Source of the DNA: Escherichia coli
Lineage (GTDB): Bacteria > Pseudomonadota > Gammaproteobacteria > Enterobacterales > Enterobacteriaceae
Direction: 5' to 3' (one strand)
Length of the DNA: 64,000 nucleotides
NCBI RefSeq assembly: GCF_017348835.2
Contig: NZ_CP071375.1
The first letter of the stretch is position 1, and the number at the start of each line of letters is the position of its first letter. Made by a program: the position numbers and the translations under genes. Under the pieces are notes generated by a model. The model did no database searches and was not told the DNA's origin. It worked only from the letters and a program-made list of their open reading frames with translations. Positions 7,001 through 62,147 of this stretch are shown in pieces.

Positions 7001-7828
7001 TTGGAAAGCCTGTTAACCCTTCCTCTGGCTGGTGAGGCCAGAGTCAGGATTTTACAAATTACCGATACTCACCTGTTTGCACAAAAGCACGAAGCCCTGT
7101 TAGGGGTAAACACCTGGGAAAGCTACCAGGCGGTGCTGGAGGCGATTCGTCCACACCAGCACGAATTCGACCTGATTGTCGCGACAGGTGATTTAGCGCA
7201 GGATCAATCCTCTGCGGCCTATCAGCATTTCGCTGAAGGCATCGCAAGTTTTCGTGCGCCCTGCGTCTGGCTGCCGGGCAACCACGATTTCCAGCCCGCG
7301 ATGTACAGCGCGTTACAGGATGCGGGTATCTCCCCGGCGAAGCGCGTGTTTATTGGTGAGCAATGGCAAATCCTGTTGCTGGATAGCCAGGTGTTTGGCG
7401 TGCCGCACGGTGAGCTGAGCGAGTTTCAGCTTGAGTGGCTGGAACGTAAACTGGCCGATGCGCCAGAACGCCATACGTTGCTGCTGCTGCATCATCATCC
7501 GCTACCTGCGGGTTGTAGTTGGCTCGATCAACACAGTCTGCGTAACGCGGGCGAACTGGATACCGTGCTGGCGAAGTTTCCGCACGTCAAATACTTGCTG
7601 TGCGGTCATATTCATCAGGAGCTGGATCTCGACTGGAACGGTCGCCGCCTGCTGGCAACGCCGTCGACCTGTGTGCAGTTTAAGCCGCACTGTTCCAACT
7701 TTACGCTGGATACTATCGCGCCCGGCTGGCGTACTCTCGAGTTACATGCTGATGGCACGCTGACCACCGAGGTGCATCGCCTGGCGGACACACGTTTCCA
7801 ACCTGATACCGCTTCAGAAGGCTACTGA
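7001..7828 (+). CDS. cpdA: 3',5'-cyclic AMP phosphodiesterase (calcineurin-like metallophosphoesterase)
   Basis: 275 aa; metallophosphoesterase motifs (DTH, GDL, GNHD, GHIH); appears to use a TTG start. Confidence 0.9.
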
Positions 7829-8409
7829 TGTCTACGCTTCTTTATTTACACGGTTTCAACAGCTCGCCGCGCTCTGCAAAAGCGAGCTTGTTAAAAAACT
7901 GGCTGGCGGAACATCACCCTGACGTTGAGATGATCATTCCGCAGTTGCCGCCGTATCCTTCCGACGCGGCAGAGCTGCTGGAATCCATTGTCCTGGAACA
8001 TGGCGGCGATTCGCTGGGTATTGTCGGTTCGTCACTGGGGGGATATTACGCCACCTGGTTGTCACAATGTTTTATGCTGCCCGCAGTGGTGGTAAACCCG
8101 GCGGTGCGCCCGTTTGAACTGCTGACGGACTATCTCGGTCAGAACGAGAACCCCTACACCGGGCAGCAATATGTGCTAGAGTCACGCCATATTTACGATC
8201 TCAAAGTCATGCAGATTGACCCGCTGGAAGCGCCGGATTTGATCTGGCTGCTGCAACAGACGGGAGATGAAGTGCTGGATTACCGCCAGGCGGTGGCGTA
8301 CTACGCTTCCTGCCGCCAGACTGTCATAGAAGGCGGCAACCACGCATTCACGGGCTTCGAAGATTATTTCAACCCGATCGTCGATTTTCTTGGTCTGCAC
8401 CATCTCTGA
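7828..8409 (+). CDS. yqiA: Esterase YqiA (alpha/beta hydrolase)
   Basis: 193 aa, GSSLGG nucleophile elbow; start overlaps cpdA stop. Confidence 0.85.
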
Positions 8410-8434
8410 CGATCAACTCGAATTGCTAACTTAA

Positions 8435-10330
<1,896 letters not shown>

Positions 10331-10358
10331 TAATCCTCCCGCCAGAAGAATAAAACAT

Positions 10359-10391
10359 AGCCCGGTATACAAGTGTATACCGGGCTTTTTT
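10359..10391. terminator. Bidirectional terminator between parE and the TonB-dependent receptor gene
   Basis: Hairpin cccggtatac...gtataccggg followed by TTTTTT; between convergent stops. Confidence 0.6.
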
Positions 10392-10393
10392 GA

Positions 10394-12535
10394 TCAAAAT
10401 TCCATTTTCACCGTGAATTGCACTTCACGCGGATCGCCAATCTGATTCCCCAGATTATTTGTGGCGATGGAAGAGGTGTAATACGTTTTATCAAACAGGT
10501 TTTTGACGTTTAATTGCAGTGTGACCGGATACTGCAATTTCATTTTGTATGCGGCGAAGGCATCGGCAACGAAATAGCCTGGCAGATAATAGTCAGCCCC
10601 ATTGGTTGCCGAACGACGGCTTACGCCATGTCCACCACCGCCAAACGTCAGTGTGTTATTGCCTGGCATGTTATGAATGTCATAGGTCAGGAATAGCGAA
10701 CCGGTATGACGAGGAACATTCGGCAATGGTTTCCCTGCATAATCAGGATCTTCCAGAACCTTAGCATCGGTATAGCCGTAGCTGGCAATGATATTAATGT
10801 TTTCAGTTAATGCTCCCGCAAGGTCGACTTCTACCCCTCTTGAACGAACGCGGCCTGCCGTTTTGGCGATGGTTTCATCACCAATACTTTCGGTATACAA
10901 CACGTTACGTTTATGGATATCAAACAGCGCAATATCTGCGGTTATACCATCGAACAGCTCGAATTTTGCCCCGACTTCGTAAGCATTAGATGATTCCGGT
11001 GGAAGATCTCCGATGTAGCTGGCAATTGACGATTGCGGCATAAATGTTTGCGAATAATTAGCAAATAAGGATACCGATGGCGTCAGTTTGTAGACTAACC
11101 CCAGTTTGGGCGTCCATTGTTCATCGCGGCTGTCAGTATTGACATTAAAAGGACGGCCTTTACCCGCATACTGCGTGTAATACTGATAGCGGATCCCGGC
11201 GACGGCAATCCAGTTATCGGTCAGATAGAGCGCGTCCTGTGCATAAGCTGAGTAGCTCTCCTGTTTGATCGTCTGATCACTGTCCGACGCCGAAACCGTT
11301 GTGCATTTGCTGGTATTGCCATAAACGGGGTTGTAGATATTGAAATCTTTAGCGTTTTTACAGCGAATCATATCTGTGCGCAGAAGATCATAATATTCAT
11401 ATGACACCCCACCCAGAATCTCATTATAGAACCCAGCAATATCAACATTCCCTTGCAGATCCGCACGAGTAGAATGCATACGCTGGGTAGATCCCTGAGT
11501 TGCATCAACACGCCGTGTCAGCGTTCCTGTCGTTGCATCATACGCGGTAACGCGAGCCTGATTGTCGCTGTATTTATCCTGGCTGTAGCTGTAATCAAAG
11601 CGCGCTGTCCACTGGCTATTGAGATGATATTCTGCGTTGAGTTGCGCCAGATCGGACTGACCATCTGTAATATTAAACGGTTCGTCAAAACGTATTTTTC
11701 GATCAACGTTTACGGGCTGTTTCGTCGTAAGGTCGAAAATCGTTCCACGATCGAACGGAGTTTTATAGTCCCGATGGGAATAGAGCATGGTTACTGTTGC
11801 ATTATCACCAAACCAGGTGAGTGACGGGGCAATAAATGTACTGCGCTCTTTACCGAAGTTTCGCCAGTAATCTTCATCCTGCACTTCCCCCGTCAGGCGG
11901 TATGTCAGCTGAGTGCCTTCAATGGGACCTGTGATATCAAGTTGCCCAGTGCCTCCGCCAAAACTGGAGGACGTGGCTGAGACAGAACCATGGAATGTTT
12001 TTTCCGGGCGCTTGGTCACGACGTTAATCAATCCACCAGGATCGAGAATGCCATACAGCGTGGAGGCCGGACCTTTTAGCACTTCCACACGTTCTGTGGC
12101 GGCGTTGAAACTGCGAGGAAGTACAGTTCGCAGACCGTTGGTCATGATGGAGCCATCCCGGTTAGCACCAAACCCACGACGTACAAAGGCGTCCTGAGTT
12201 CCGCCTAATGTATTGGTCTGTACCACGTTACTGACGTTATAAAGCGCTTCATCCAGCGTCGTTGCATTCTGATTTTCCAGAACCTGATCGCTAACCGTAT
12301 TGACCACCTGCGGAATATCCAGCATCGGCATATCGGTTAATGTCGCCGTGGAAGTGCTCAGAGGTTGATAACCATCGGTCGCCTCAGTTGCGGTATTTGC
12401 ATCCGCTGTAACAGTGATTGTTTCGCCATCTTTGGTCGTTGCAGTGTCGGTTGCATGAATCATTGGTGCTGCAAAGAGCAGTGAAAAGAGCGCCCGACCT
12501 TTGATTCCTGAGAATGAAGGTGTGAACTTAGCCAT
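10394..12535 (-). CDS. TonB-dependent outer-membrane siderophore/iron receptor (accessory, not in K-12 at this site)
   Basis: 713 aa; signal peptide, TonB-box-like ETITVTA, plug-domain motifs, C-terminal aromatic residue (..KMEF); similarity to fitA is from memory only. Confidence 0.85.
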   Translation of the reverse strand: MAKFTPSFSGIKGRALFSLLFAAPMIHATDTATTKDGETITVTADANTATEATDGYQPLSTSTATLTDMPMLDIPQVVNTVSDQVLENQNATTLDEALYNVSNVVQTNTLGGTQDAFVRRGFGANRDGSIMTNGLRTVLPRSFNAATERVEVLKGPASTLYGILDPGGLINVVTKRPEKTFHGSVSATSSSFGGGTGQLDITGPIEGTQLTYRLTGEVQDEDYWRNFGKERSTFIAPSLTWFGDNATVTMLYSHRDYKTPFDRGTIFDLTTKQPVNVDRKIRFDEPFNITDGQSDLAQLNAEYHLNSQWTARFDYSYSQDKYSDNQARVTAYDATTGTLTRRVDATQGSTQRMHSTRADLQGNVDIAGFYNEILGGVSYEYYDLLRTDMIRCKNAKDFNIYNPVYGNTSKCTTVSASDSDQTIKQESYSAYAQDALYLTDNWIAVAGIRYQYYTQYAGKGRPFNVNTDSRDEQWTPKLGLVYKLTPSVSLFANYSQTFMPQSSIASYIGDLPPESSNAYEVGAKFELFDGITADIALFDIHKRNVLYTESIGDETIAKTAGRVRSRGVEVDLAGALTENINIIASYGYTDAKVLEDPDYAGKPLPNVPRHTGSLFLTYDIHNMPGNNTLTFGGGGHGVSRRSATNGADYYLPGYFVADAFAAYKMKLQYPVTLQLNVKNLFDKTYYTSSIATNNLGNQIGDPREVQFTVKMEF

Positions 12536-12908
12536 TTAGTCTGTTATCCCAAAAACTCACGGATTGTCGTGAGTGAAAATTGTTTCTTGTTGCTCACTAA
12601 GCACTATCCGTTTGTTATTTCACCATCGGATATGTAATTGAGAATCATTCAACCATGCGCTGATGTAGTAGTAAATGAGAAATAACAAAAAATTGCTACA
12701 TGTGTTTTTATGAGAGGTTAATGCAATTCAATTGATGGTAATTTATTAATATTTAATGGTTTTATTTTTATCTTTAAAAATATTTCACCTATTATTTACC
12801 TTGTTTTTGTATGGCTTTTAACTTCTTGACTACTACATTTTGTGGCGTCAAACTCTCAAAGGAGAATGAGTTTTATTTTTGTTTGTCTTTGATTAAGTTG
12901 GCGTACAC
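12536..12908. promoter_or_regulatory. AT-rich divergent promoter region for receptor gene and ABC operon, with Fur-box-like element near 12634-12652
   Basis: About 370 bp AT-rich intergenic between divergent starts; gagaatcattc resembles half of the Fur consensus GATAATGATAATCATTATC. Confidence 0.35.
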
Positions 12909-13718
12909 GTGGCACATAACGCAAAAGGGCAGGGGCTGATCCTCGACAATGTTTCTGCCGGGTATCACAAGAAAATCATTGTTGATGGTGTTTCTTTCTC
13001 CGTTCCCACAGAAAAAATGACCGTTCTGGTTGGGGCAAACGGCTGTGGAAAGTCGACGTTGCTCAGCACCATTGCACGTATCTTGCAACCCATGGGCGGC
13101 TCAATATTGCTGGATGGTAAAGCGATTCACGAGCAACCAACGAAAGCGTTATCCCGTAGACTTGGGATCTTGCCGCAGTCGCCATTATTGCCGGAGGGCT
13201 TAATCGTTTATGAACTGGTGTCGCGTGGGCGTTTTCCCTGGCAGAATTTCATTCGTCAATGGAGCGACGCCGACGAGCAGGCGGTAGAAGAGGCTCTGAA
13301 ATTAACCGGTACGCAGGAGTTTGCTCATTTACCTGTTGAAAAACTCTCTGGTGGGCAGCGCCAGCGTTGCTGGATTGCGATGGTGTTGGCGCAAAAGACG
13401 CCTTATATCCTACTGGATGAACCCACAACCTGGCTTGATTTACGTTATCAGGTTGAAATTCTTGAGTTATTACATGATTTAACGCGTCATCACGGGCGTA
13501 CAGTCGTCGTGGTGTTGCATGATCTGAATTTTGCCGTCAATTATGGTGATACGTTGATATTTTTACGCCAGGGGAAAGTGGTGCGTGTGTTGAATGAGGG
13601 GGAGCATTGCACGCCTGAGCTGGTAAAAGCTGTCTTTGACGTTGATGTTCACGCATCAATAAATCCTCTGTCGGGAAAGCCGTTCTTCATGCCGTTTCGT
13701 GGTGTAGAAAAAGTATGA
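12909..13718 (+). CDS. Iron-siderophore ABC transporter ATP-binding protein (FecE/FepC-like)
   Basis: Walker A GANGCGKST, signature LSGGQRQR, Walker B ILLDEPT; start codon appears to be GTG. Confidence 0.85.
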   Translation: MAHNAKGQGLILDNVSAGYHKKIIVDGVSFSVPTEKMTVLVGANGCGKSTLLSTIARILQPMGGSILLDGKAIHEQPTKALSRRLGILPQSPLLPEGLIVYELVSRGRFPWQNFIRQWSDADEQAVEEALKLTGTQEFAHLPVEKLSGGQRQRCWIAMVLAQKTPYILLDEPTTWLDLRYQVEILELLHDLTRHHGRTVVVVLHDLNFAVNYGDTLIFLRQGKVVRVLNEGEHCTPELVKAVFDVDVHASINPLSGKPFFMPFRGVEKV

Positions 13719-14698
13719 TGCGCACAGGGCTGGTTACTGTAATTTTCCTCGCCTTACTGCTGGTGGGATGCGTGGTATATCCAGGGATTGGTGCCCGATT
13801 TATTGCACCACAAACGGTGTTGCAGGCATTTCTTCATTTTGAACCGCAAAACTTCGATCACAACGTAATTGTAAGACTCCGTTTGCCGCGTTTAGCGGCA
13901 GCATTGCTTACCGGTGCTTCTCTTGGAGTTGCTGGTGCTTTGTTGCAGGCTGTCATTCGTAACCCATTGGGGGAGCCACATATTTTAGGCTTAAATGCCG
14001 GAGCCGCTCTTGCTGTCGTTGCTGCCAGTGCGCTTGGGCTGGCCTTTCCGGTTGGACGCCCACTGCTGGCATCTACGGGCGGCGCGTTATTGTTCCTGTT
14101 GATATTGCTGCTTTCCTCCGCAGGGCGTTCAGGGTTAACGCCAATGAAAGTTACTTTATGCGGCGTGGCGCTATCGGCGTTCGTGTCCTCAATAACGGCT
14201 GCAATCCTGATTCTTGACGAACAAACACTGCTGGCGATGCGGACATGGCTAGCAGGTGATTTAGCGGGGCAGGATTGGGTGACGCTGGGTACGTCCGCCT
14301 GGTTTTCTCTGGGGGGATTTGTGTTAGCCATTTACCTTGCGCCCTCTCTTAACATGTTGGCACTGGGTGATCGCATGGCGCAGGGGCTGGGCGTCTCGGT
14401 ACTCCGCACGCGAACATTCACCCTGCTTGCGATCGCGTTGCTCTGTGGCGCAGCCGTATCGATTGCTGGCCCCATTGGTTTTGTCGGTCTGCTAGTACCG
14501 CAGATTGTCAGGCGTCTGGTATCAGCGGATCTGCGCGTTCTGCTCCCTCTTTCAGCTTGTGTCGGCGCGCTTTTGTTATTACTGGCAGATATTATTGCTC
14601 GGACGCTCTTCACGCCCCATGAGTTAGCGACCGGTGTCATGACGGCGTTAGTTGGTGCGCCTGTTTTTGTCATTATGGCGACGAGGATGTTCAAATGA
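13715..14698 (+). CDS. Iron-siderophore ABC transporter permease (FecCD family)
   Basis: 327 aa polytopic membrane protein; start overlaps ATPase stop. Confidence 0.8.
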   Translation: MMRTGLVTVIFLALLLVGCVVYPGIGARFIAPQTVLQAFLHFEPQNFDHNVIVRLRLPRLAAALLTGASLGVAGALLQAVIRNPLGEPHILGLNAGAALAVVAASALGLAFPVGRPLLASTGGALLFLLILLLSSAGRSGLTPMKVTLCGVALSAFVSSITAAILILDEQTLLAMRTWLAGDLAGQDWVTLGTSAWFSLGGFVLAIYLAPSLNMLALGDRMAQGLGVSVLRTRTFTLLAIALLCGAAVSIAGPIGFVGLLVPQIVRRLVSADLRVLLPLSACVGALLLLLADIIARTLFTPHELATGVMTALVGAPVFVIMATRMFK

Positions 14699-15744
14699 GT
14701 CGGATAATGAACGTCGGGCTACGCCCACTACGTGTTGGTAAGTTTTCGACACTGGTACGCCCTAAAAATCTGGTGTTGCTTGGTGGGCTGTTTCTGTTTG
14801 CGGTTGGAATACTGATATTCGGTCTGATGCATGGTTCTTTTTCTGTCCCGGCATCGGAAGTAGGACGAGCGTTGTTTGCTCCAGAAAACGTAAGCACAGA
14901 CGCACGTTATATTGTGCAGGATATTCGCTTGCCGAGAGTCATCATGGCATTGCTATGCGGAGCCATGTTAGGTATGGCGGGGGCCGCGATGCAATCCATT
15001 GCGCGTAACGGCCTTGCCGATCCTGGTTTAATCGGCGTCAAAGAAGGATGTAGCGTGGCGGTGCTGTGGCTGATTATCCAGTTTCCAATGCTGGGAATGT
15101 TCTGGCGTCCAGTGGCTGGTCTTGCTGGTGGCTTGTTGGTGGCTTTAATCGTGATTTTTTGTGCACGCGATATTTCCCGCCCGCGATTTGTTCTGATTGG
15201 TATTGGTGTTTCCTGGTTTTTCGCCGCCGGTATCGGTGTATTTATGACCACTGCAGATGTTCGAGATGTACAAACTGCATTGATGTGGTTATCGGGAAGC
15301 CTGCATGCAGCAAACTGGATGTTAGTCGGTATTTCAGCCTGTTGGATGTTGCCAGCCGCTCTTTTATTGCTGTTCACCGCCAGGACGGCGGATATCGCTC
15401 TGCTTGGTCATCAGGTTGCAACCGGGTTAGGGGTGAATAGTTCTCGTCTGGCGTTGTTACGTGTCGCCGCACCAATAATCCTGACAGCCGTCTGCGTTTC
15501 GTGTGTTGGTAACATCGGTTTTGTCGGATTGATAGCACCCCATATATCACGTTTTATTCTACGTGGCGGGCAGACGACATTACTGCTGGGGAGCGCGGTA
15601 TCGGGGGCGTTGTTAGTTATTCTGGCGGATAGCATTGGTCGTTTGGCTTTTTTGCCTTTGCAACTGCCTGCAGGAATCATTATCTCACTGATTGGTGGGC
15701 CATTTTTTTTGCTACTGCTCTGGCAGCGCAGGAACAGTTTTTAA
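14695..15744 (+). CDS. Iron-siderophore ABC transporter permease (FecCD family), second copy
   Basis: 349 aa polytopic membrane protein; start overlaps preceding stop. Confidence 0.8.
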   Translation: MSRIMNVGLRPLRVGKFSTLVRPKNLVLLGGLFLFAVGILIFGLMHGSFSVPASEVGRALFAPENVSTDARYIVQDIRLPRVIMALLCGAMLGMAGAAMQSIARNGLADPGLIGVKEGCSVAVLWLIIQFPMLGMFWRPVAGLAGGLLVALIVIFCARDISRPRFVLIGIGVSWFFAAGIGVFMTTADVRDVQTALMWLSGSLHAANWMLVGISACWMLPAALLLLFTARTADIALLGHQVATGLGVNSSRLALLRVAAPIILTAVCVSCVGNIGFVGLIAPHISRFILRGGQTTLLLGSAVSGALLVILADSIGRLAFLPLQLPAGIIISLIGGPFFLLLLWQRRNSF

Positions 15745-15754
15745 TGGGAGTTAT

Positions 15755-16702
15755 ATGCGTTTATTTTTTTCTCTGCTGATACTGTTGTCATTCTTTGCCC
15801 GCGCGACAGAACCTGTTCAGGTCTTTACTGATGATTTAGGGCGCAAAGTCACTGTTCCTGCTCATCCAAAGAGAATTGTCTCTTTACACGATCTTGATAT
15901 CACTATTCCTCTGATTGAGCTCGGTGTACCTCCTGTCGCCAGCCACGGGCGAACCCGGCCTGACGGTAGCCATTTCATTCGATCAGGCGCGTTATTGACA
16001 GGTGTCGACTTTGATAATTCATCGATCGCTTTTATTGGCACCGCTGATATTGATATTGAAGCGATTGTGGCGGCAAAGCCTGATCTGATTATCACAGAAC
16101 CGACCCGTAATACGCCCATTGAACAACTGGAAAAAATTGCGCCCACGGTGAGCATTGATCATCTCAAAGGAGGCGCGCCAGAAATCTACCGCAAGCTGGC
16201 AGAACTGACAGGAACGCAGTCGCAGCTGGCGATACTTGAACGCCGCTATCAGGCACAAATCAATGCGCTGAAGGCGACGCTGGACAGCCAAAAAATAACG
16301 GTATCGGTGATTCAGGCAAATCAGGGAAAAATTAATGTGATGCATAGCTATCATTCGCTGGGGCGGGTATTACGCGATGCTGGTTTTCGCTTTCCGCCGC
16401 TGATTGAGAGCATTCCTGAAGGTGGGCGAATGGATGTGAGCGCGGAGCGTTTACCTGAACTGGATGCCGATTTTGTTTTTGCAACCTGGCGCGGTGACAC
16501 CGGTGGTAAACCTCAGGATGAGCTGGCAGCAATGGAAAAAGTCATGCCGGGATGGTGTCAGTTTCTGACTGCCTGTCGTTCCGGGCGTTATGTGCTGATT
16601 TCTCGTGAAGAGGCAATTTCTAACTCCTTTGCATCTCTGGGGCTGATGGCTGCGCAGATACAATCACAAATTGCGGGACGACCTCTACCGGAGGCTAAAT
16701 GA
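15755..16702 (+). CDS. Periplasmic iron-siderophore binding protein (cluster A substrate-binding protein)
   Basis: 315 aa from MRLFFSLLILLSFFARA (signal peptide), GGAG-like RBS upstream; ORF-track start is an upstream extension. Confidence 0.75.
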   Translation: MRLFFSLLILLSFFARATEPVQVFTDDLGRKVTVPAHPKRIVSLHDLDITIPLIELGVPPVASHGRTRPDGSHFIRSGALLTGVDFDNSSIAFIGTADIDIEAIVAAKPDLIITEPTRNTPIEQLEKIAPTVSIDHLKGGAPEIYRKLAELTGTQSQLAILERRYQAQINALKATLDSQKITVSVIQANQGKINVMHSYHSLGRVLRDAGFRFPPLIESIPEGGRMDVSAERLPELDADFVFATWRGDTGGKPQDELAAMEKVMPGWCQFLTACRSGRYVLISREEAISNSFASLGLMAAQIQSQIAGRPLPEAK

Positions 16703-17586
16703 TCCAGAAAGACAAAACGCGGGTTGATATTTATGGTGAGCGTTTTCGCACTCGCGCGAGTCAGTTAACGCCTGGGTTAAGAGCTGTCGCAAGCTACATT
16801 AATGAGCATCGTGAAGTGGTACTCGAGCAAACGGCGATGGAAATTGCGGCCACGTTGAACACTTCCGATGCCACAGTTATCAGGGCTATACAGGCCCTGG
16901 GGTTTGCCGGGCTGCGTGATCTGAAACGCACTCTGGAACAGTGGCTTGGTCCAGCCCTTAGTTCCAGCGAAAAGATGTCTACGACGGTGAGTAACTTGAC
17001 GAGCGATGTTAACACCGCAATCGACTTTGTTCTTGAAGGGCATTTGTATACCTGTAATGTCCTGTCAGAGCCTGAAAACCGCCACGCGCTTGCGCAAGCT
17101 GTAGCGTTGTTGGTACAGGCACGGCAAGTCGCAATTTTTGGCATTGGCGCTTCGGGTATTCTGGCGGACTATACCGCACGACTATTCAACCGCATAGGTT
17201 TGCCTGCCACGGCACTAAACCGTACGGGTATTGGCCTTGCCGAGCAACTGATCGCGCTTCAACGTGGCGATGTTCTGATCATGATGGCGCAAAAATCTGC
17301 GCACCGGGAAGGACTGACAACGCTGCGTGAAGCGAGACGGCTGGGGATCCCTGTTATTTTGCTGACAAACGCGCTGGATTCACGTTTTAGCAAAGACGCC
17401 AGTATCGTGATTCATGTTCCGCGCGGGGATGAAAAGGGGAAAACGCCACTACATGGTACGGTATTGTTGTGCCTGGAAATGATTGTTTGGTCGGTGGCTT
17501 CCGCGATGCCGCAGCGTGCGGTTAAAACCATTAAGCGAATTAACGATTTCCATCGGGGTTTGAAAACAGGAAGAAAGAATGGCTAA
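16699..17586 (+). CDS. RpiR/MurR-family transcriptional regulator (HTH_6 + SIS domain)
   Basis: 295 aa; N-terminal HTH, central SIS-type fold (VAIFGIGASG); start overlaps stop of binding-protein gene. Confidence 0.75.
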   Translation: MIQKDKTRVDIYGERFRTRASQLTPGLRAVASYINEHREVVLEQTAMEIAATLNTSDATVIRAIQALGFAGLRDLKRTLEQWLGPALSSSEKMSTTVSNLTSDVNTAIDFVLEGHLYTCNVLSEPENRHALAQAVALLVQARQVAIFGIGASGILADYTARLFNRIGLPATALNRTGIGLAEQLIALQRGDVLIMMAQKSAHREGLTTLREARRLGIPVILLTNALDSRFSKDASIVIHVPRGDEKGKTPLHGTVLLCLEMIVWSVASAMPQRAVKTIKRINDFHRGLKTGRKNG

Positions 17587-17594
17587 TCTGACCT

Positions 17595-17622
17595 GAGGCC
17601 GGTAGCAACACCGGCCTTTTTC
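17595..17622. terminator. Terminator after RpiR-family gene, facing ygiN stop
   Basis: Hairpin ggccgg...ccggcc followed by TTTTT. Confidence 0.55.
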
Positions 17623-17629
17623 AGGAATG

Positions 17630-17944
17630 TTAAATCCCCGGTTGCAGAATACGGATATTCATCTCCAGCACGTCGCCTTTTACGGCTTCGCTGTACGCCT
17701 TCATGTGCGGGGTTTGCAGATGCGCTTCAAGGTGCGCGATGCTTTCCCACTGCTCAATCATCACGATAGAATCCGGTGCCATAGACTGGAAACTCACGCC
17801 AGCAGCGCAATCCACCATTGGCGCATAGCCGTGGCAACCTTCTTCTTTCAGTACGGTTGGAACGATTTTAGCAAACTGATCCAATACCGCCTGACGGTGA
17901 TGTTGACCAGGACGAGTACGGATTTCTGCGATTACGGTAAGCAT
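17630..17944 (-). CDS. ygiN: Quinol monooxygenase YgiN
   Basis: 104 aa, ABM-domain; follows mdaB as in K-12. Confidence 0.9.
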   Translation of the reverse strand: MLTVIAEIRTRPGQHHRQAVLDQFAKIVPTVLKEEGCHGYAPMVDCAAGVSFQSMAPDSIVMIEQWESIAHLEAHLQTPHMKAYSEAVKGDVLEMNIRILQPGI

Positions 17945-17974
17945 GGTTAACTCCTTCTAAAGCCTGAGCTCTAG

Positions 17975-18556
17975 TTAACCAAAAATTTCCACAAGATGCT
18001 TGCGATATTCTTCAGTATAGCGGGGAACATCAGGCATTTTTATCACGTCATTAGCGATAAATGTCGGCAGCGGTTCCATACCGAGGAATTGGTTTGCTTT
18101 ATGGAACGACAGATACACACCGTCAACGCCAACGCCGTGGAAGAACTGATCTTTTTCGGTGAAGGCTTCCATTGGTGCGTTCCAGGTTAGAGAAAGCATA
18201 TATTTTTTGCCCTGTACCAGGCCGCCGGAACCGTATTTTTTCGACGGATCTTTGCGGGTACGACCATCGCTGGCATACAGAGTCCCGTGACCTTCGGTGA
18301 ATACATCATCAATGTATTTTTTCACTGTCCACGGCGCGCCCATCCACCAGCCTGGCATCTGCCAGATCACCACATCAGCCCAGAGAAAGTTTTGTACTTC
18401 CGCTTTGACATCGTAGTCGCTGTCGGCGCGAACGATGCGAACATCATGCCCGAGGTCGCGCAGTGTGCCATCCGCGACTTCGGTCAGGGTGTCGTTCAGT
18501 TGACCATTGGAGTGGGCGAATTTTTTCACGCCGTTGATAATCAGGATGTTGCTCAT
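17975..18556 (-). CDS. mdaB: NADPH:quinone oxidoreductase MdaB
   Basis: 193 aa flavodoxin-like fold protein (MSNILIINGVKKFAHSNGQLN...). Confidence 0.9.
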   Translation of the reverse strand: MSNILIINGVKKFAHSNGQLNDTLTEVADGTLRDLGHDVRIVRADSDYDVKAEVQNFLWADVVIWQMPGWWMGAPWTVKKYIDDVFTEGHGTLYASDGRTRKDPSKKYGSGGLVQGKKYMLSLTWNAPMEAFTEKDQFFHGVGVDGVYLSFHKANQFLGMEPLPTFIANDVIKMPDVPRYTEEYRKHLVEIFG

Positions 18557-18665
18557 TTTTTAACCTCAAGGTGAGACGTTTGCCAACTATAGTACGTCAC
18601 AGAGCGGTACGGTGAAATTAGCAAAATGTGCAAAGTCTTTTGCGAATTTAGCAAAAGTCTTACCC

Positions 18666-58858: not shown

Positions 58859-60175
58859 TCACCTTCTGCCAAACAGATTGACAACATTATTGCCTGTTTG
58901 CTGTTGATAGTTATTAACCCGGTCCTCCCAGATCTCAAGTGCTCTGCGTTTTTCTGGCAAATAATCGTATCGATCATAATGTTTTGAACTGACATCGTTC
59001 AACGCATGATTTTGAATACGATCGCGGATTTCCTTACTGATCCCAGCTTCTCCCATTAACGTTTTACAGGTCCGACGTAAGTCACGTGCTGTAAAAATTT
59101 TAAAGTCAGGATTAAAAGCCCGGAAATACATGATAGCGCGAGCCAGACTGTCCGTACGAACCGGACGCTTACCATTAGTCGAAAGTGGAAAAATGTAAGG
59201 GCTGGATTTTTCTTTTGTTAACTCCTGCACACAGGATAATTCCTGTAATGCTGATTCAGTCAACGGTATCAAATGCTCTCGTTTATTTTTAGAGACATCA
59301 GCAGTCACCAGCAGCGTTTTTTGTTGAAAATCAACATCACACCACTGACTGGCGATCATTTCGAAGGGACGTTGCCCTCCGGTATAGATACAGAATCGGA
59401 TCAAATGTTGCATCAATAATCCAACGTTGGTTGCTTCAGCAAAATGTTCCATTAGAAAACGCAACTCTTCAAGTGTCAGCCAGGTATCACCGACTTTTTC
59501 AGCAGATGACTGTTTCGGTATCACTGACACCGGATTTGCCTCCAGCCCAAAAGTAATCCCTGCACTTGTGTTCATCGGATCGTTATCTGCTTTCAGTCCA
59601 TAGTTAAATGCAGCCATCAGGTAAGAACGGATCCGGTTAGAGTGAACCACAGCACCACGCTGAATGATCCCGGCCAGGATATGTTTAATCTGTCCGGAAG
59701 TCACATCTTTAGCTTTAGTTTCACGGGGGATCACTGTATAGCATTCATTTTCAAGGCGTTTCAGAACATCCTGCCATGTCCTCTTATTATCAATTTTCAT
59801 TTTGTTAACATAACCATGAATCAATGCTTCAAATGAGCCCTGTGATTGATGGAGTTGTATCCGCTGCTGTTCTGCAAACTGTTGTCGTTCCAGTTCTGCC
59901 TGGGGATCCTTTCCTTCAATGAGCCAGGCACCATACTTTTTTGCCAGTTCATTCGCTGTGGCCAGTTTCATCTCAGGCCATATACCCAATTGAATGAATC
60001 TTTCTTTTTTCCCTTTTTCCACGTAATAGCGGAAATAGAAAATCTTGCTGCCAGAAGACTGAACTTTGACACCAAGTCGTCCAGTGCCACGTTGAGAGCT
60101 GTTGCTCCAGACATAGAACGATGTCTTTTTTGCTTTCAATGCTCGGATGGCTGTTTCAGTAAGATTGACGGCCAT
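58859..60175 (-). CDS. Tyrosine site-specific integrase (P4-like, N-terminal DUF4102-type arm-binding domain)
   Basis: 438 aa; C-terminal catalytic region with R...HxLR...Y pattern (..LRRTCKTL.., ..HYDRYDY..); adjacent to tRNA-derived att repeat. Confidence 0.85.
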   Translation of the reverse strand: MAVNLTETAIRALKAKKTSFYVWSNSSQRGTGRLGVKVQSSGSKIFYFRYYVEKGKKERFIQLGIWPEMKLATANELAKKYGAWLIEGKDPQAELERQQFAEQQRIQLHQSQGSFEALIHGYVNKMKIDNKRTWQDVLKRLENECYTVIPRETKAKDVTSGQIKHILAGIIQRGAVVHSNRIRSYLMAAFNYGLKADNDPMNTSAGITFGLEANPVSVIPKQSSAEKVGDTWLTLEELRFLMEHFAEATNVGLLMQHLIRFCIYTGGQRPFEMIASQWCDVDFQQKTLLVTADVSKNKREHLIPLTESALQELSCVQELTKEKSSPYIFPLSTNGKRPVRTDSLARAIMYFRAFNPDFKIFTARDLRRTCKTLMGEAGISKEIRDRIQNHALNDVSSKHYDRYDYLPEKRRALEIWEDRVNNYQQQTGNNVVNLFGRR

Positions 60176-60471: not shown

Positions 60472-61236
60472 TTACTTCGCGTGCCAGTAAGCCGCTGCAC
60501 GTACCTGTTGAGGGTCATACTGTTCCGCTTCAAAGCGACGGCTTAAATTCTTCACCACCTTCCCTTCGCCGGTTATCCAGATGAAGTAATCATCGGCAGG
60601 GATTTGCATCTGCGCCAGACGCGCATCTACCGCCTGCTCATCATGTGCCAGCCATTCGATATTAAAACCATCAAGGTGCGCGAGATAATCCTGACAGGCG
60701 TTATCCCGCACGCTAACCAGCGCGCTAACTTGCGGTTTAACGGCAAGTTTGCTCAACGTTTCCAGGCGGCGGCGCAGTGCGGGCATTCCGGATTCATCGC
60801 AGACATACAGCTGATACGCGTAATCTTCCGGCACCACCAGCGAACCGCGCGGACCTGCCACCGTGAGTTTATCGCCCGGTTGGGCCTGCATTGCCCAGCT
60901 ACTGGCGACGCCGTCTTCGTGAATAAAGAAATCAATCGCCAGTTCATGGCGTAGTTCGTCATACAACGGCGTATAGTCACGCGACGGTGGGCGTGGTCCT
61001 TCCGGCCAGACGATGCCCTCTTCCGTTACCGTTGGCGGCACAAAGTGAGCGTCAGGTTGAGGAAAGAAGAGTTTGCTGTGATCGTCAAAGCCGCGCGATG
61101 TAAAACCGTCCAGCGCCTCGCCGCCAAGGACAATGCGCTGAAAACCGGCGCTGATACGCTCAACGCGTAGCACAGTCAGTTCACGGAACCGCAGATCATT
61201 GCGAACGCGCTGCGGGTAGCGGGGGGTGTTATTCAT
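60472..61236 (-). CDS. yqjH: NADPH-dependent ferric-siderophore reductase (siderophore-interacting protein, FAD-binding)
   Basis: 254 aa, MNNTPRYPQRVRNDLRFRELTVLRVERIS..., ViuB-like. Confidence 0.9.
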   Translation of the reverse strand: MNNTPRYPQRVRNDLRFRELTVLRVERISAGFQRIVLGGEALDGFTSRGFDDHSKLFFPQPDAHFVPPTVTEEGIVWPEGPRPPSRDYTPLYDELRHELAIDFFIHEDGVASSWAMQAQPGDKLTVAGPRGSLVVPEDYAYQLYVCDESGMPALRRRLETLSKLAVKPQVSALVSVRDNACQDYLAHLDGFNIEWLAHDEQAVDARLAQMQIPADDYFIWITGEGKVVKNLSRRFEAEQYDPQQVRAAAYWHAK

Positions 61237-61257
61237 TGTTATCGCCTTCGTGATGGT

Positions 61258-61314
61258 AATCAGATATATCTAAATAAAACTCGCAAATGATAATGATTGT
61301 TAATCATGATAAAT
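61258..61314. promoter_or_regulatory. yqjH promoter region: palindrome ATCAGATATATCTAAAT plus Fur-box-like AAATGATAATGATTGTTAATCATGATAAAT
   Basis: Near-perfect dyad symmetry seen directly; matches Fur consensus GATAATGATAATCATTATC; yqjH is a known Fur- and YqjI-regulated gene. Confidence 0.55.
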
Positions 61315-61389
61315 GCAAGCGATTTGTAGAACTGATATGTCTATAGTCTGATAAGACGAACCGCCTCTTCTCAGGCATCATTACTCAAC

Positions 61390-61424
61390 GCCGGATGCGG
61401 CGTGAACGCCTTATCCGGCCTACG
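61390..61424. repeat. REP element in yqjH-yqjI intergenic region
   Basis: gccggatgcggcgtgaacgccttatccggcctac. Confidence 0.7.
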
Positions 61425-61477
61425 TGTGAGATGAGTCCACGTTTAAAAATCATTTTTACACTTGCAAGAGCTCTCAT

Positions 61478-61505
61478 ATCAGATATAAATTAGATATATC
61501 TAATT
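61478..61505. promoter_or_regulatory. Second palindromic operator-like site (ATCAGATATAaattAGATATATCTAAT) immediately upstream of yqjI
   Basis: Shares the AGATATATCT core with the site at 61258-61275; sits 20 bp upstream of the yqjI start, consistent with autoregulation. Confidence 0.45.
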
Positions 61506-61523
61506 AAGCAAAAGGAGGCTGAT

Positions 61524-62147
61524 ATGAGCCATCATCACGAAGGGTGTTGTAAACATGAAGGCCAGCCACGCCATGAGGGCTGCTGCAAAGGTGAGAAGTC
61601 AGAACACGAGCACTGCGGACACGGTCACCAGCATGAACACGGTCAATGCTGCGGTGGTCGCCACGGTCGCGGCGGCGGTCGTCGACAACGTTTCTTTGGT
61701 CACGGTGAATTGCGTCTGGTGATTCTGGATATTCTCTCGCGCGATGACAGCCACGGTTACGAATTGATTAAAGCGATTGAGAATCTAACCCAAGGGAATT
61801 ACACCCCAAGCCCGGGCGTCATCTACCCGACGCTGGATTTTCTGCAGGAGCAGTCGCTGATTACCATCCGCGAAGAGGAAGGTGGTAAGAAGCAGATTGC
61901 GCTGACCGAACAAGGCGCGCAGTGGCTGGAAGAAAACCGCGAACAGGTGGAGATGATTGAAGAACGCATCAAAGCGCGTTGCGTTGGCGCTGCGCTGCGC
62001 CAGAACCCGCAAATGAAGCGGGCGCTGGATAATTTTAAAGCGGTGCTGGATTTACGCGTCAACCAGAGTGATATCACTGATGCACAAATAAAAAAGATCA
62101 TTGCGGTGATCGACCGCGCCGCTTTTGATATTACGCAACTGGATTAA
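61524..62147 (+). CDS. yqjI: PadR-family Ni/Fe-responsive repressor YqjI (NfeR) with His/Cys-rich N-terminal tail
   Basis: 207 aa; N-terminus MSHHHEGCCKHEGQPRHEGCCKGEKSEHEHCGHGHQHEHGQCCGG followed by PadR winged helix. Confidence 0.9.
   Translation: MSHHHEGCCKHEGQPRHEGCCKGEKSEHEHCGHGHQHEHGQCCGGRHGRGGGRRQRFFGHGELRLVILDILSRDDSHGYELIKAIENLTQGNYTPSPGVIYPTLDFLQEQSLITIREEEGGKKQIALTEQGAQWLEENREQVEMIEERIKARCVGAALRQNPQMKRALDNFKAVLDLRVNQSDITDAQIKKIIAVIDRAAFDITQLD

Follow-up and report, generated by a model that had tools for sequence, protein, structure and literature searches.

The fit system of Escherichia coli was reportedly first described by Ouyang and Isaacson in Infection and Immunity in 2006. 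Its regulator, FitR, binds the DNA between fitA and fitB and represses transcription in both directions, including its own, which constitutes negative feedback; repression was documented with lacZ fusions and qRT-PCR in fitR knock-out, complemented and over-expressing strains, and binding by EMSA with specific competition (PMC2593036). [quoted passage not shown] FitR was without a database match at that time (PMC2593036). Extraintestinal and adherent-invasive E. coli are enriched for Fit.

The solved proteins closest to FitR, whether judged by fold or by sequence (E = 2e-15), are RccR and HexR, the KDPG-sensing RpiR-family repressors of Pseudomonas (PDB 8K3B, 8JU9). They share the HTH_6 + SIS architecture with FitR, and the RccR half-site TGTAGT/ACTACA matches a motif of the fit promoters; however, RccR is about 22% identical to FitR, and RccR and HexR govern carbon metabolism, whereas FitR governs a siderophore transporter. 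NanR of V. vulnificus (PDB 4IVN; ManNAc-6P) and MurR of E. coli (PDB 7EN5; MurNAc-6P/GlcNAc-6P) are RpiR-family repressors whose genes adjoin the uptake and catabolic genes under their control, and they are relieved by a metabolite of the imported substrate, a logic that may by analogy extend to FitR. Their effectors are amino-sugar phosphates bound in an S-x-S-G-x-S/T loop, whereas FitR lacks this loop. FecIR (an ECF sigma/anti-sigma pair) and the AraC-type regulators PchR, YbtA, and AlcR resemble FitR in adding a pathway-specific layer over global Fur control of TonB-dependent uptake, but they belong to other families and act with the opposite sign (activator or sigma factor), FitR being a repressor with a SIS sensor domain. 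As far as the literature searched shows, FitR is the case on record of a siderophore system under an RpiR-type regulator.

Identity and organization of the fit locus

The window, which is the whole 64-kb stretch of E. coli DNA analysed, carries fitA divergent from an operon encoding an ATPase, two permeases, a binding protein, and a regulator, in that order, as judged from open reading frames, from domains, and from the way RefSeq annotates a locus of 100% identity (Table 1). RefSeq lists the same six genes and leaves the fitR start unchanged. Primers published for fit of strain i484 (Table 2 of PMC2593036) all fell on the expected gene and strand (20 of 20), 11 with 0 mismatches and the others with 1–3. 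Sites with 0 mismatches lie in fitA (11715–11791), fitB (13066–13152), fitD (15399–15458), and fitR (16802–16889); the fitC sites (14334–14429) have 1–2 mismatches, the fitE primers have 1 mismatch each, and the fitR cloning primers are located at 16699 and 17569–17583. Residues 19–315 of FitE correspond to PDB 3BE5/3BE6 across all 297 residues (E = 2.2e-195), and 3BE6 has been called Ec-FitE (PMC10553834). The fitA product scores 371.9 bits against TIGR01783 (TonB-dependent siderophore receptor; cut-off 223.5), and among receptors of solved structure it is nearest to FetA, FoxA/CntO, and FhuA (E about 1e-44 to 1e-49).

The last open reading frame of this operon is fitR, the closing gene of fitBCDER of the E. 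coli Fit system. It agrees with the published fitR (Ouyang & Isaacson; Infect Immun 2006, Open Microbiol J 2008, PMC2593036) in gene, gene order, domains, divergent promoter, and type of chromosomal locus; there is no difference of kind from strain i484, the allele differing at a few primer positions (0–3 mismatches). Of 5426 complete E. coli genomes, 1870 carry the 7193-bp fit locus at 95–100% identity. The regulator gene is therefore a real finding but an already known one, its product being a repressor published in 2006–2008, an identity that the sequence-only reading of this DNA had not recognised.

That reading had called the protein an HTH_6 + SIS regulator, and the assignment holds. FitR matches HTH_6 (PF01418) over residues 15–81 (39.8 bits, cut-off 28.3) and SIS (PF01380) over residues 138–247 (52.1 bits, cut-off 25), and its AlphaFold2 model (pLDDT 92.8, pTM 0.79) contains a five-stranded parallel sheet. 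The SIS fold is genuine by structure comparison: the top Foldseek matches of the model were RccR-KDPG, NanR-ManNAc-6P, and MurR, with probability 1.00 to RpiR-family and SIS structures, and SIS-only targets gave TM about 0.8 at an rmsd of about 2.5 A. The lack of a true SIS fold, which the sequence-only reading had named as refuting its proposal, was thus looked for and did not apply. FitR nevertheless failed to reach the cut-off of any named NCBIfam model of the RpiR family (HexR, MurR, AlsR, glucokinase-fused regulator, and SapR), the best scores being 79.3, 72.5, 66.2, and 52.0 bits against cut-offs of 920, 378, 400, and 296; the MurR models gave 27.7 bits (cut-off 408) and 72.5 bits (cut-off 378). 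FitR is outside these named orthologous groups.

Co-transcription and translational coupling of the regulator with the transporter, also proposed from the sequence, are likewise correct. The fitR ATG (16699–16701) overlaps the TGA stop of fitE (16700–16702) as ATGA, preceded by GGAGG. At this junction, almost every orthologous locus in other genera has a 4-nt overlap or a gap of at most 15 nt, and the -4 overlap itself is present in at least 27 of 57 orthologous loci by a conservative count. Directly 3' of the fitR stop lies a strong hairpin (-20.4 kcal/mol, z = -4.7; no shuffle was equally stable) followed by a T-run, so that the operon ends with fitR. The hairpin between parE and fitA is stable on both strands (-21.8 kcal/mol on + and -22.3 kcal/mol on -; z = -6.3 and -7.3). 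A generic promoter/terminator scan reported neither fit promoter nor either flanking terminator; the promoters were identified by conservation and sequence reading, and the terminators by folding. An Rfam search found no known RNA within 10000–18600.

Table 1. Genes and predicted regulatory elements of the fit locus (window coordinates).
Feature	Position	Strand	Description
Terminator hairpin, parE/fitA	10359-10386	.	Bidirectional; AGCCCGGTATACAAGTGTATACCGGGCT, T/A runs flanking both sides
fitA	10394-12535	-	TonB-dependent siderophore receptor, 713 aa; Plug + TonB_dep_Rec_b-barrel domains
Fur-box-like element 1	12634-12652	.	GTAATTGAGAATCATTCAA; overlaps -10/start region of predicted fitA promoter
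Predicted fitA promoter	12647-12675	-	-35 TTTACT (12675-12670), 17-nt spacer, -10 TTGAAT (12652-12647)
Predicted operator arm O1	12664-12672	.	TGTAGTAGT; single copy in window; overlaps fitA -35 box and spacer
Predicted partner half-site	12695-12700	.	GCTACA; 31 bp from O1; weaker evidence than O1/O2
Predicted fitBCDER promoter	12826-12854	+	-35 TTGACT (12826-12831), 17-nt spacer, -10 CAAACT (12849-12854)
Predicted operator arm O2	12829-12837	.	ACTACTACA, inverted O1; single copy in window; overlaps fitB -35 box and spacer
Fur-box-like element 2	12862-12880	.	GAGAATGAGTTTTATTTTT, reverse strand; just 3' of predicted fitB -10
fitB	12909-13718	+	ABC ATPase; ABC_tran; top NCBIfam match FecE-like; RefSeq start identical
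fitC	13715-14698	+	FecCD-family permease; FecCD E = 4e-88
fitD	14707-15744	+	FecCD-family permease; E = 9e-78; RefSeq start (longest ORF from 14695)
fitE	15755-16702	+	Periplasmic siderophore-binding protein; Peripla_BP_2; RefSeq start (longest ORF from 15692)
fitE/fitR junction	16690-16702	+	GGAGGCTAAATGA; Shine-Dalgarno GGAGG 16690-16694; ATGA overlap 16699-16702
fitR	16699-17586	+	MurR/RpiR-type auto-repressor, 295 aa, 32.3 kDa, pI 9.9; ATG start; HTH_6 + SIS
Terminator hairpin, fitR/convergent ygiN	17596-17621	.	AGGCCGGT-AGCAAC-ACCGGCCT, then TTTTT

Divergent promoters and a predicted FitR operator

Both fit promoters in Table 1 are predictions from sequence and conservation profile. Fur-box-like elements would overlap or follow each -10 box: element 1 matches 12 and element 2 matches 13 of the 19 positions of the Fur consensus, matches of equal strength being found also elsewhere in the window. 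Across the 49 intergenic regions compared, all distinct and drawn from many genera, at least 90% of the columns of element 1 are conserved, as they are at loci of a second class (defined below) and in Orrella; at least 90% of the columns of element 2 are likewise conserved across genera. The Fur box is clearer in Orrella than at the E. coli fit promoters. The sequence-only reading had set an RpiR-type regulator in the place of Fur control. Since Fur represses fit independently of FitR and more strongly (about 23-fold versus about 2-fold), this contrast does not apply here. What that reading expected of the divergent promoter, by contrast, was already in print: reporter fusions in a regulator deletion, the experiment it had proposed, showed that FitR represses fitA and fitB, and FitR binds the DNA between them (PMC2593036).

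The likely binding site of FitR emerged from comparison of two classes of regulatory region, namely 49 distinct fitA-fitB-type regions from many genera (class 1) and 21 regions from Pantoea, Serratia, and Erwinia in which a FitR orthologue lies beside a different receptor, with no ABC genes (class 2). TGTAGTAGT was found in all 49 class-1 regions and in 20 of the 21 of class 2; it also lies upstream of the receptor gene in Orrella. ACTACTACA was found in 48 of the 49 class-1 regions, 164–189 bp from O1. A CTACA lies at +31 or +32 from O1 in 31 of the 49 class-1 regions, and ACTACA at +31 in 14 of the 20 class-2 regions having TGTAGTAGT. Altogether, the operator 9-mers occur 140 times in 1.5 Mb, against 11.5 expected. 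In the GC-rich Orrella (Burkholderiales), whose FitR homologue is 44% identical, both arms and a Fur box stand upstream of the receptor gene, with TTTACTACTACAT as the O2 counterpart directly upstream of the Fur box. The DNase-footprinted motif of RccR is TGTAGT/ACTACA, and the PaceA element bound in EMSA contains TGTAGTAGT. By sequence comparison the inverted fit arms match this motif, but they lie far apart: the predicted FitR arms are separated by 31 bp and about 165 bp, compared with RccR spacers of 3 and 16 bp. TGTAGTAGT/ACTACTACA is, on these comparisons, likely to be the FitR operator, conserved in Enterobacterales and Orrella; its conservation could be owed in part to the -35 hexamers that it overlaps. 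Inverted repeats in the fitA 5' leader (CTCACG-N6-CGTGAG at 12556–12573; arms 12551–12619) were also considered as the operator and rejected, as they are not conserved across genera.

FitR lowers transcription of fitA and fitBCDER about 2- to 5-fold, Fur-Fe2+ acting separately (PMC2593036); in the mechanism that we propose, it would do so by recognising the inverted 9-mers O1 and O2 in the intergenic DNA, with a weaker CTACA partner 31 bp from the first arm. At each of the two divergent promoters, the -35 box and spacer are overlapped by one arm, so that FitR on the DNA would keep RNA polymerase out. As regulators of the RpiR family form dimers or tetramers, a single FitR oligomer may bridge both arms. 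The spacing between the arms is variable, however (124, 164–166, 178, and 184–189 bp), without a constant helical phase, which counts against a fixed looped complex.

The SIS pocket of FitR and its candidate effectors

We assigned the FitR pocket by aligning its sequence with those of RccR and V. vulnificus NanR and compared it across orthologues (the best 80 of 297 relatives, each from Enterobacterales). The four RccR serines that hold the KDPG phosphate, S139, S183, S185, and S188, align with S152, A197, K199, and H202 of FitR, so that S152 alone is kept; positions 197, 199, and 202 are A/G, K/Q/N, and H, respectively, and never Ser or Thr, in the best 80 of 297 relatives. The NanR loop VSSSGST aligns with MAQKSAH of FitR. 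FitR does not have the canonical phosphosugar cradle, which consists of a first-loop Ser and an S-x-S-G-x-S/T loop after strand 3. Invariant in the same best 80 of 297 relatives are Q198, S200, H202, E204, P241-R242-G243, and H252 of the pocket, together with C258 and E260. The invariance of the pocket loops spans Escherichia to Erwinia and Serratia at 66–99% overall identity, and Q198, H202, E204, P241, and H252 are retained even at 40–44% identity.

With three of the four phosphate serines replaced, a canonical phosphosugar effector is not predicted, and the FitR effector is, from its aligned pocket, probably not a canonical sugar phosphate. K199, H202, and R203 could still serve as ligands of an anion, phosphate included. 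The sequence-only reading had offered two possibilities, a sugar-like effector or co-option of the family for a non-sugar ligand, and the pocket sequence would fit the second better. The most economical guess is that the effector is, or derives from, the siderophore that Fit imports. Among the best 80 of 297 relatives, a TonB-dependent receptor gene adjoins the FitR orthologue at about 70 of the 80 loci, most of the others being truncated. In the wider FitR-like subfamily (25–51% identity, 11 loci), a clear siderophore-type operon was seen in Orrella only, and the other contexts held weak or ambiguous metal hints, 2-aminoethylphosphonate-like or Opp/Nik-like transporters, or nothing. With one clear case (Orrella) among the 11 contexts, a general linkage of the wider subfamily to iron uptake is kept as no more than a low-probability reading.

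Our tentative proposal, which we regard as possible rather than probable, is that FitR-type proteins form a distinct RpiR subfamily with a SIS pocket that lacks the phosphate serine cradle and would recognise an effector that is not phosphorylated. The simplest candidate is the siderophore that Fit imports, as such or once freed of iron or degraded, and its recognition would give substrate-specific de-repression atop Fur. The module of regulator, TGTAGTAGT/ACTACTACA, Fur box, and receptor would then extend from Enterobacterales to Burkholderiales (Orrella), with distant members on other transport systems, some of them metal-related. In mechanistic terms, and with lower confidence than the remainder of the scheme, an effector in the conserved SIS pocket would relieve repression and add substrate-specific induction to the control by iron.

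Because published repression is weak and the same with or without dipyridyl, FitR might instead have no small-molecule input and act as a pure negative-feedback damper on Fit, with the SIS domain serving oligomerisation only. Repression is indeed modest and differs little between media rich and poor in iron, no inducing condition is known, and negative autoregulation alone would account for the small knock-out effects. Yet the three pocket-forming loops keep Q198, S200, H202, E204, P241-R242-G243, and H252 invariant over 66–99% identity, with Q198, H202, E204, P241, and H252 persisting at 40–44%, and such invariance exceeds the need of an oligomerisation scaffold; we consider a damper without effector unlikely.

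More doubtful still is that FitR senses a phosphosugar or another central-carbon metabolite, as RccR and HexR sense KDPG, and so couples siderophore uptake to carbon status or to a sugar-conjugated substrate. The nearest solved relatives of its genuine SIS fold all bind sugar phosphates, S152 (RccR S139) and R165 (RccR R152) are kept, and the DNA half-site is identical to that of RccR. Against this, the replacement of three phosphate-binding serines holds throughout the best 80 of 297 relatives, the S-x-S-G-x-S/T loop is missing from about 100 subfamily representatives, no named RpiR-family model admits FitR, and at the best 80 loci no sugar-catabolic gene is linked to fitR while linkage to a TonB-dependent receptor is near-universal. 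We therefore rate this effector, the one favoured by the sequence-only reading's first alternative, as quite improbable.

Direct sensing of a metal ion or of iron status through invariant His/Glu/Cys residues (H202, E204, H252, C258, and E260), which would make FitR a second iron sensor beside Fur, is highly improbable even with hints from distant members (one adjoining a HupE/UreJ-like gene that has RcnR and NicO in its neighbourhood, others near an Rrf2 regulator, a weak OFeT_1 match with PepSY, or a cupredoxin/EfeO-like gene, and one subfamily member whose own gene has a Fur-box-like element upstream), given that FitR repression in vivo is the same with and without an iron chelator, that the fur fitR double mutant behaves additively, and that these contexts are heterogeneous and several of the matches weak.

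Implications for Fit and for the RpiR family

The explanation that we favour for the locus as a whole, combining the identity of fitR and Fit, the published repression by FitR and Fur, the predicted operator, and an effector in the SIS pocket, is in our judgement very probably correct. Fit consists of the TonB-dependent receptor FitA and the FecCD-type ABC importer FitBCDE for a ferric siderophore. Ferrichrome has reportedly been implicated as its substrate. In K. pneumoniae ST258, fitA is induced by iron limitation and enterobactin is said not to be the substrate, and a 2026 genome paper ascribes uptake of Fe2+, Co2+, and Cd2+ to Fit.

As the rediscovery of a published regulator, the finding changes little. 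The sequence-only reading was right about family, coupling, and promoter regulation, and fell short on the Fur framing and the sugar effector. New here are the support for the SIS fold, the replacement of the pocket serines, and a likely operator at both -35 boxes. The predicted operator and pocket residues make the questions of the Fit substrate and the FitR effector directly testable, and FitR could be used as a biosensor, which would provide a handle for identifying the Fit substrate. Should the ligand of the FitR SIS domain not be a sugar phosphate, a very large family of regulators would gain a broader range of known ligands.

Identity of the regulator gene and its locus

ORF 16699-17586 (+) begins with ATG and encodes a 295-aa protein with an HTH_6 domain (residues 15-81; 39.8 bits, cut-off 28.3) and a SIS domain (residues 138-247; 52.1 bits, cut-off 25). 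Together with the TGA of the preceding Peripla_BP_2 gene, its start codon forms an overlapping ATGA (16699-16702); GGAGG sits 4 bases 5′ of the start. The domains, the ATGA junction and the RefSeq annotation, whose six-gene set is identical, agree with the sequence-only reading, which had placed an HTH_6 and SIS regulator gene at the end of an iron-siderophore ABC operon with its start overlapping the binding-protein stop. Folding revealed a strong hairpin (-20.4 kcal/mol, z = -4.7) with a T-run directly after the stop codon, and a second, bidirectional terminator lies between the receptor gene and parE.

With parE flanking the locus at one end and ygiN-mdaB-qseCB at the other, the window is E. 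coli chromosome. The literature describes an E. coli fit system comprising fitA, fitB-E and fitR (PMC2593036). Each of the 20 published fit primers lands in its expected gene and on the correct strand, 11 perfectly and the remainder with 1-3 mismatches (PMC2593036); the binding protein matches PDB 3BE5/3BE6 (E = 2e-195), and 3BE6 is called Ec-FitE (PMC10553834); and a 2026 genome paper gives its fit operon a length of exactly 7193 bp. These correspondences identify the ORF as fitR. Because FitR has been published, we count the case as already known and the present finding as a rediscovery. A minor discrepancy between PMC2593036 and window 16699-17583 probably reflects gel mobility or an earlier, shorter annotation. 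Of 5426 complete E. coli genomes, 1870 carry the 7193-bp block at 95-100% identity; it is absent from K-12, where the parE-ygiN spacer is just 47 bp. Separately, ygiZ, located between qseC and mdaB in K-12 (L096 1380-1712), is absent from the window, leaving a 109-bp gap (18557-18665); a reference strain 100% identical at the fit locus likewise lacks it.

Elsewhere in the window (60472-62147), a divergent pair encodes a FAD_binding_9 and SIP protein and a PadR-like regulator; it resembles the known yqjH/yqjI (nfeF/nfeR) pair. The best Fur-box-like sequence near the pair is GCAAATGATAATGATTGTTAATCATGATAAATG (about 61283-61310). The pair would be a second iron-related unit with a local regulator not of the Fur type.

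Features of the window and of comparison loci
Feature	Location	Strand	Details
ABC ATPase, two FecCD permeases, binding protein	5′ of fitR	+	
TonB-dependent siderophore receptor gene	divergent from ABC operon	-	373-bp spacer, 31% G+C
fitA 5′ leader, inverted-repeat arms	12551-12576 and 12594-12619		26 nt; leader 12551-12619
fitA 5′ leader, inverted repeat	12556-12573		CTCACG-N6-CGTGAG
fitA 5′ leader, inverted repeat	12605-12632		TATCCG-N16-CGGATA
Conserved block 1	12634-12652		GTAATTGAGAATCATTCAA; Fur-box-like, 12/19 consensus positions
Conserved block 2	12663-12675		ATGTAGTAGTAAA
Conserved block 3	12826-12838		TTGACTACTACAT
Conserved block 4	12862-12880		GAGAATGAGTTTTATTTTT; Fur-box-like, 13/19 consensus positions
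Integrase-domain gene adjoining the FAD_binding_9/PadR-like pair	58859-60175	-	
Siderophore-interacting FAD-binding protein		-	FAD_binding_9 + SIP; 254 aa
Intergenic region of the pair	61237-61523		
PadR-like regulator gene		+	207 aa
PBP_like_2 insertion, Erwinia sp. JUb26	L045 6926-9992		
PBP_like_2 insertion, Pantoea coffeiphila	L047		
Two PBP_like_2 genes, Orrella dioscoreae	L095 8010-9946		
Class-2 loci L054, L055, L062-L064, L066, L068-L071, L074-L077, L080, L082-L084, L087, L089	about 7400-10900 each		

Regulation of fit and a candidate FitR operator

When FitR is over-expressed, expression from fitA- and fitB-lacZ fusions falls about 3-fold, and knock-out of fitR de-represses them, with repression regained on complementation and qRT-PCR matching the reporter results (PMC2593036). 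In an EMSA-type assay, His-tagged FitR shifted the intergenic fragment and unlabelled fragment competed; fit was still induced by iron chelation in a fitR mutant, and the authors concluded that FitR is a Fur-independent auto-repressor (PMC2593036). The main, iron-dependent repression of fit is exerted by Fur-Fe2+ (PMC2593036). The reporter fusion in a regulator deletion proposed by the sequence-only reading had thus already been published, and its premise that the operon lies outside Fur control was wrong: Fur represses fit, and FitR acts independently of Fur. The feature itself is real, was correctly described and was mostly correctly interpreted. FitR works like other RpiR repressors encoded beside the uptake genes they control, and differs from FecIR and the AraC-type activators, the usual siderophore-specific regulators.

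Alignment of 49 distinct fitA-fitB spacers revealed four conserved blocks, each shared by 90% or more of the sequences, of which ATGTAGTAGTAAA and TTGACTACTACAT are mutual inverted copies (repeat I4). Each inverted block opens with a plausible -35 hexamer (TTTACT on the minus strand for fitA, TTGACT for fitB), followed 17 nt beyond by a -10-like hexamer (TTGAAT and CAAACT, respectively) and then a Fur-like box. The 9-mers TGTAGTAGT and ACTACTACA, each single-copy in the 64-kb window, occur in 49/49 and 48/49 of these class-1 spacers, 164-189 bp apart. TGTAGTAGT also occurs in 20/21 class-2 spacers (beside a different receptor in Pantoea, Serratia and Erwinia), mostly accompanied by ACTACA at +31 and by a second copy near +185; in total, the 9-mers were observed 140 times in 1.5 Mb against 11.5 expected. 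In Orrella (70% G+C), the region 5′ of the receptor gene carries ATGTAGTAGT, 115 nt, TTTACTACTACAT and then ATTGACAATCATTCTCAAT, a clear Fur box.

For Pseudomonas RccR, DNase I footprinting yielded the motif TGTAGT/ACTACA, and TGTAGTAGT lies within the RccR PaceA binding element (EMSA). Distant subfamily members have TGTAG[CT]-N-[AG]CTACA palindromes 5′ of their own genes. Based on this motif match and the cross-genus conservation of the arms, we propose TGTAGTAGT/ACTACTACA as the candidate FitR operator. Occupancy of the arms would occlude both -35 regions, in agreement with the published bidirectional repression. Two reservations attach to the proposal: the arms overlap part of the -35 hexamers, and the distance between them keeps no constant phase. 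This predicted operator and promoter architecture would be a new, incremental addition. The inverted repeats of the fitA leader are poorly conserved beyond Escherichia. At a metagenomic locus (L008, about 505-765), TTGACTACTAC and the Fur-box-like GTAATGAGATTCATTTAC lie 5′ of P0126, a gene whose product is 43% identical to FitR; here the same combination of predicted operator and Fur-box-like element precedes the regulator gene itself.

Distribution of FitR-type loci

We scanned one genome per species and compared the best 80 of 297 relatives, all from Enterobacterales. The full fitA/fitBCDE-fitR arrangement is found in 48 of these loci, in Escherichia, Enterobacter, Silvania, Huaxiibacter, Phytobacter, Kosakonia, Citrobacter, Klebsiella, Raoultella, Kluyvera and some Erwinia. 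It adjoins parE in Enterobacter and relatives too, and is therefore not an E. coli-specific island. About 22 loci, from Pantoea, Serratia and Erwinia, pair a FitR orthologue of 66-69% identity with a divergently transcribed gene for another receptor, which is 35-39% identical to FitA and accompanied by a Peripla_BP_2 gene; these loci contain no permease or ATPase genes, and nonetheless keep the Fur-box and TGTAGTAGT block. At two loci, fitE and fitR are separated by genes for a PepSY_TM protein and a pair of PstS-like (PBP_like_2) proteins. In Orrella dioscoreae (Burkholderiales), a 44%-identical FitR homologue is the last gene of an operon that also encodes a receptor, an ATPase, two permeases, a binding protein and two PBP_like_2 proteins. 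Two PstS-like proteins thus accompany a siderophore-type importer in two orders. Across the surveyed loci, the regulator stays associated with TonB-dependent uptake.

The SIS pocket and possible effectors

An AlphaFold2 model of FitR built on a 99-sequence alignment (pLDDT 92.8, pTM 0.79) has a helical N-terminal domain and a five-stranded alpha/beta domain. The top Foldseek matches in the PDB, all at probability 1.00, were RccR-KDPG, Vibrio vulnificus NanR-ManNAc-6P, Streptococcus pneumoniae NanR and MurR, and SIS-only entries aligned at TM ~0.8 (rmsd ~2.5 Å). The SIS fold, whose absence would have spoken against the sequence-only reading, is genuine as judged from the model. Domains and fold place FitR in the MurR/RpiR family, with RccR as its closest solved homologue; it scores below every cut-off for the named NCBIfam orthologous groups (HexR, MurR, AlsR and others) and lacks the family's phosphosugar cradle.

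Three loops, beta1-alpha10, beta3-alpha12 and alpha13-alpha14, make up the RccR pocket, and S139, S183, S185 and S188 hold the KDPG phosphate. In a phmmer alignment the four serines correspond to FitR S152, A197, K199 and H202, and FitR MAQKSAH aligns with the V. vulnificus NanR loop VSSSGST. Among the best 80 of 297 relatives (about 20 genera, 66-99% identity), positions 197/199/202 are A/G, K/Q/N and H, with Ser/Thr in 0/80. S152, R161, R165, Q198, S200, H202 and E204 are invariant in these 80, as are P241-R242-G243, L251-H252, C258 and E260. The S-x-S-G-x-S/T loop is also absent from about 100 wider-subfamily representatives (25-51% identity), which show A-Y-G-x-x-Y-x-E instead. This systematic lack of the phosphate cradle appears to be new here, if incremental.

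Judged by alignment, the pocket loops thus appear strongly constrained yet chemically unlike those of phosphosugar sensors, which argues for a ligand, though not for a canonical sugar phosphate. That FitR functions without any effector is accordingly unlikely. K199, H202 and R203 might nonetheless accommodate an anion; sugar-catabolic genes were linked to none of the surveyed loci (the best 80 of 297 relatives, and Orrella), and we consider sensing of a phosphosugar or carbon signal distinctly improbable. FitR, produced from the transporter mRNA, exerts iron-independent negative feedback on both promoters (PMC2593036), and direct metal sensing is the most far-fetched reading.

Conservation suggests that FitR would occupy TGTAGTAGT/ACTACTACA across the two -35 regions, with Fur binding at the -10 regions or beyond them. 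Speculatively, an effector in the re-modelled SIS pocket may release FitR, so that full fit expression would then require both low iron and the cognate substrate. FitR-type proteins might even, though this is less likely than not, form an SIS subfamily that is conserved in two orders and senses siderophores instead of phosphosugars.
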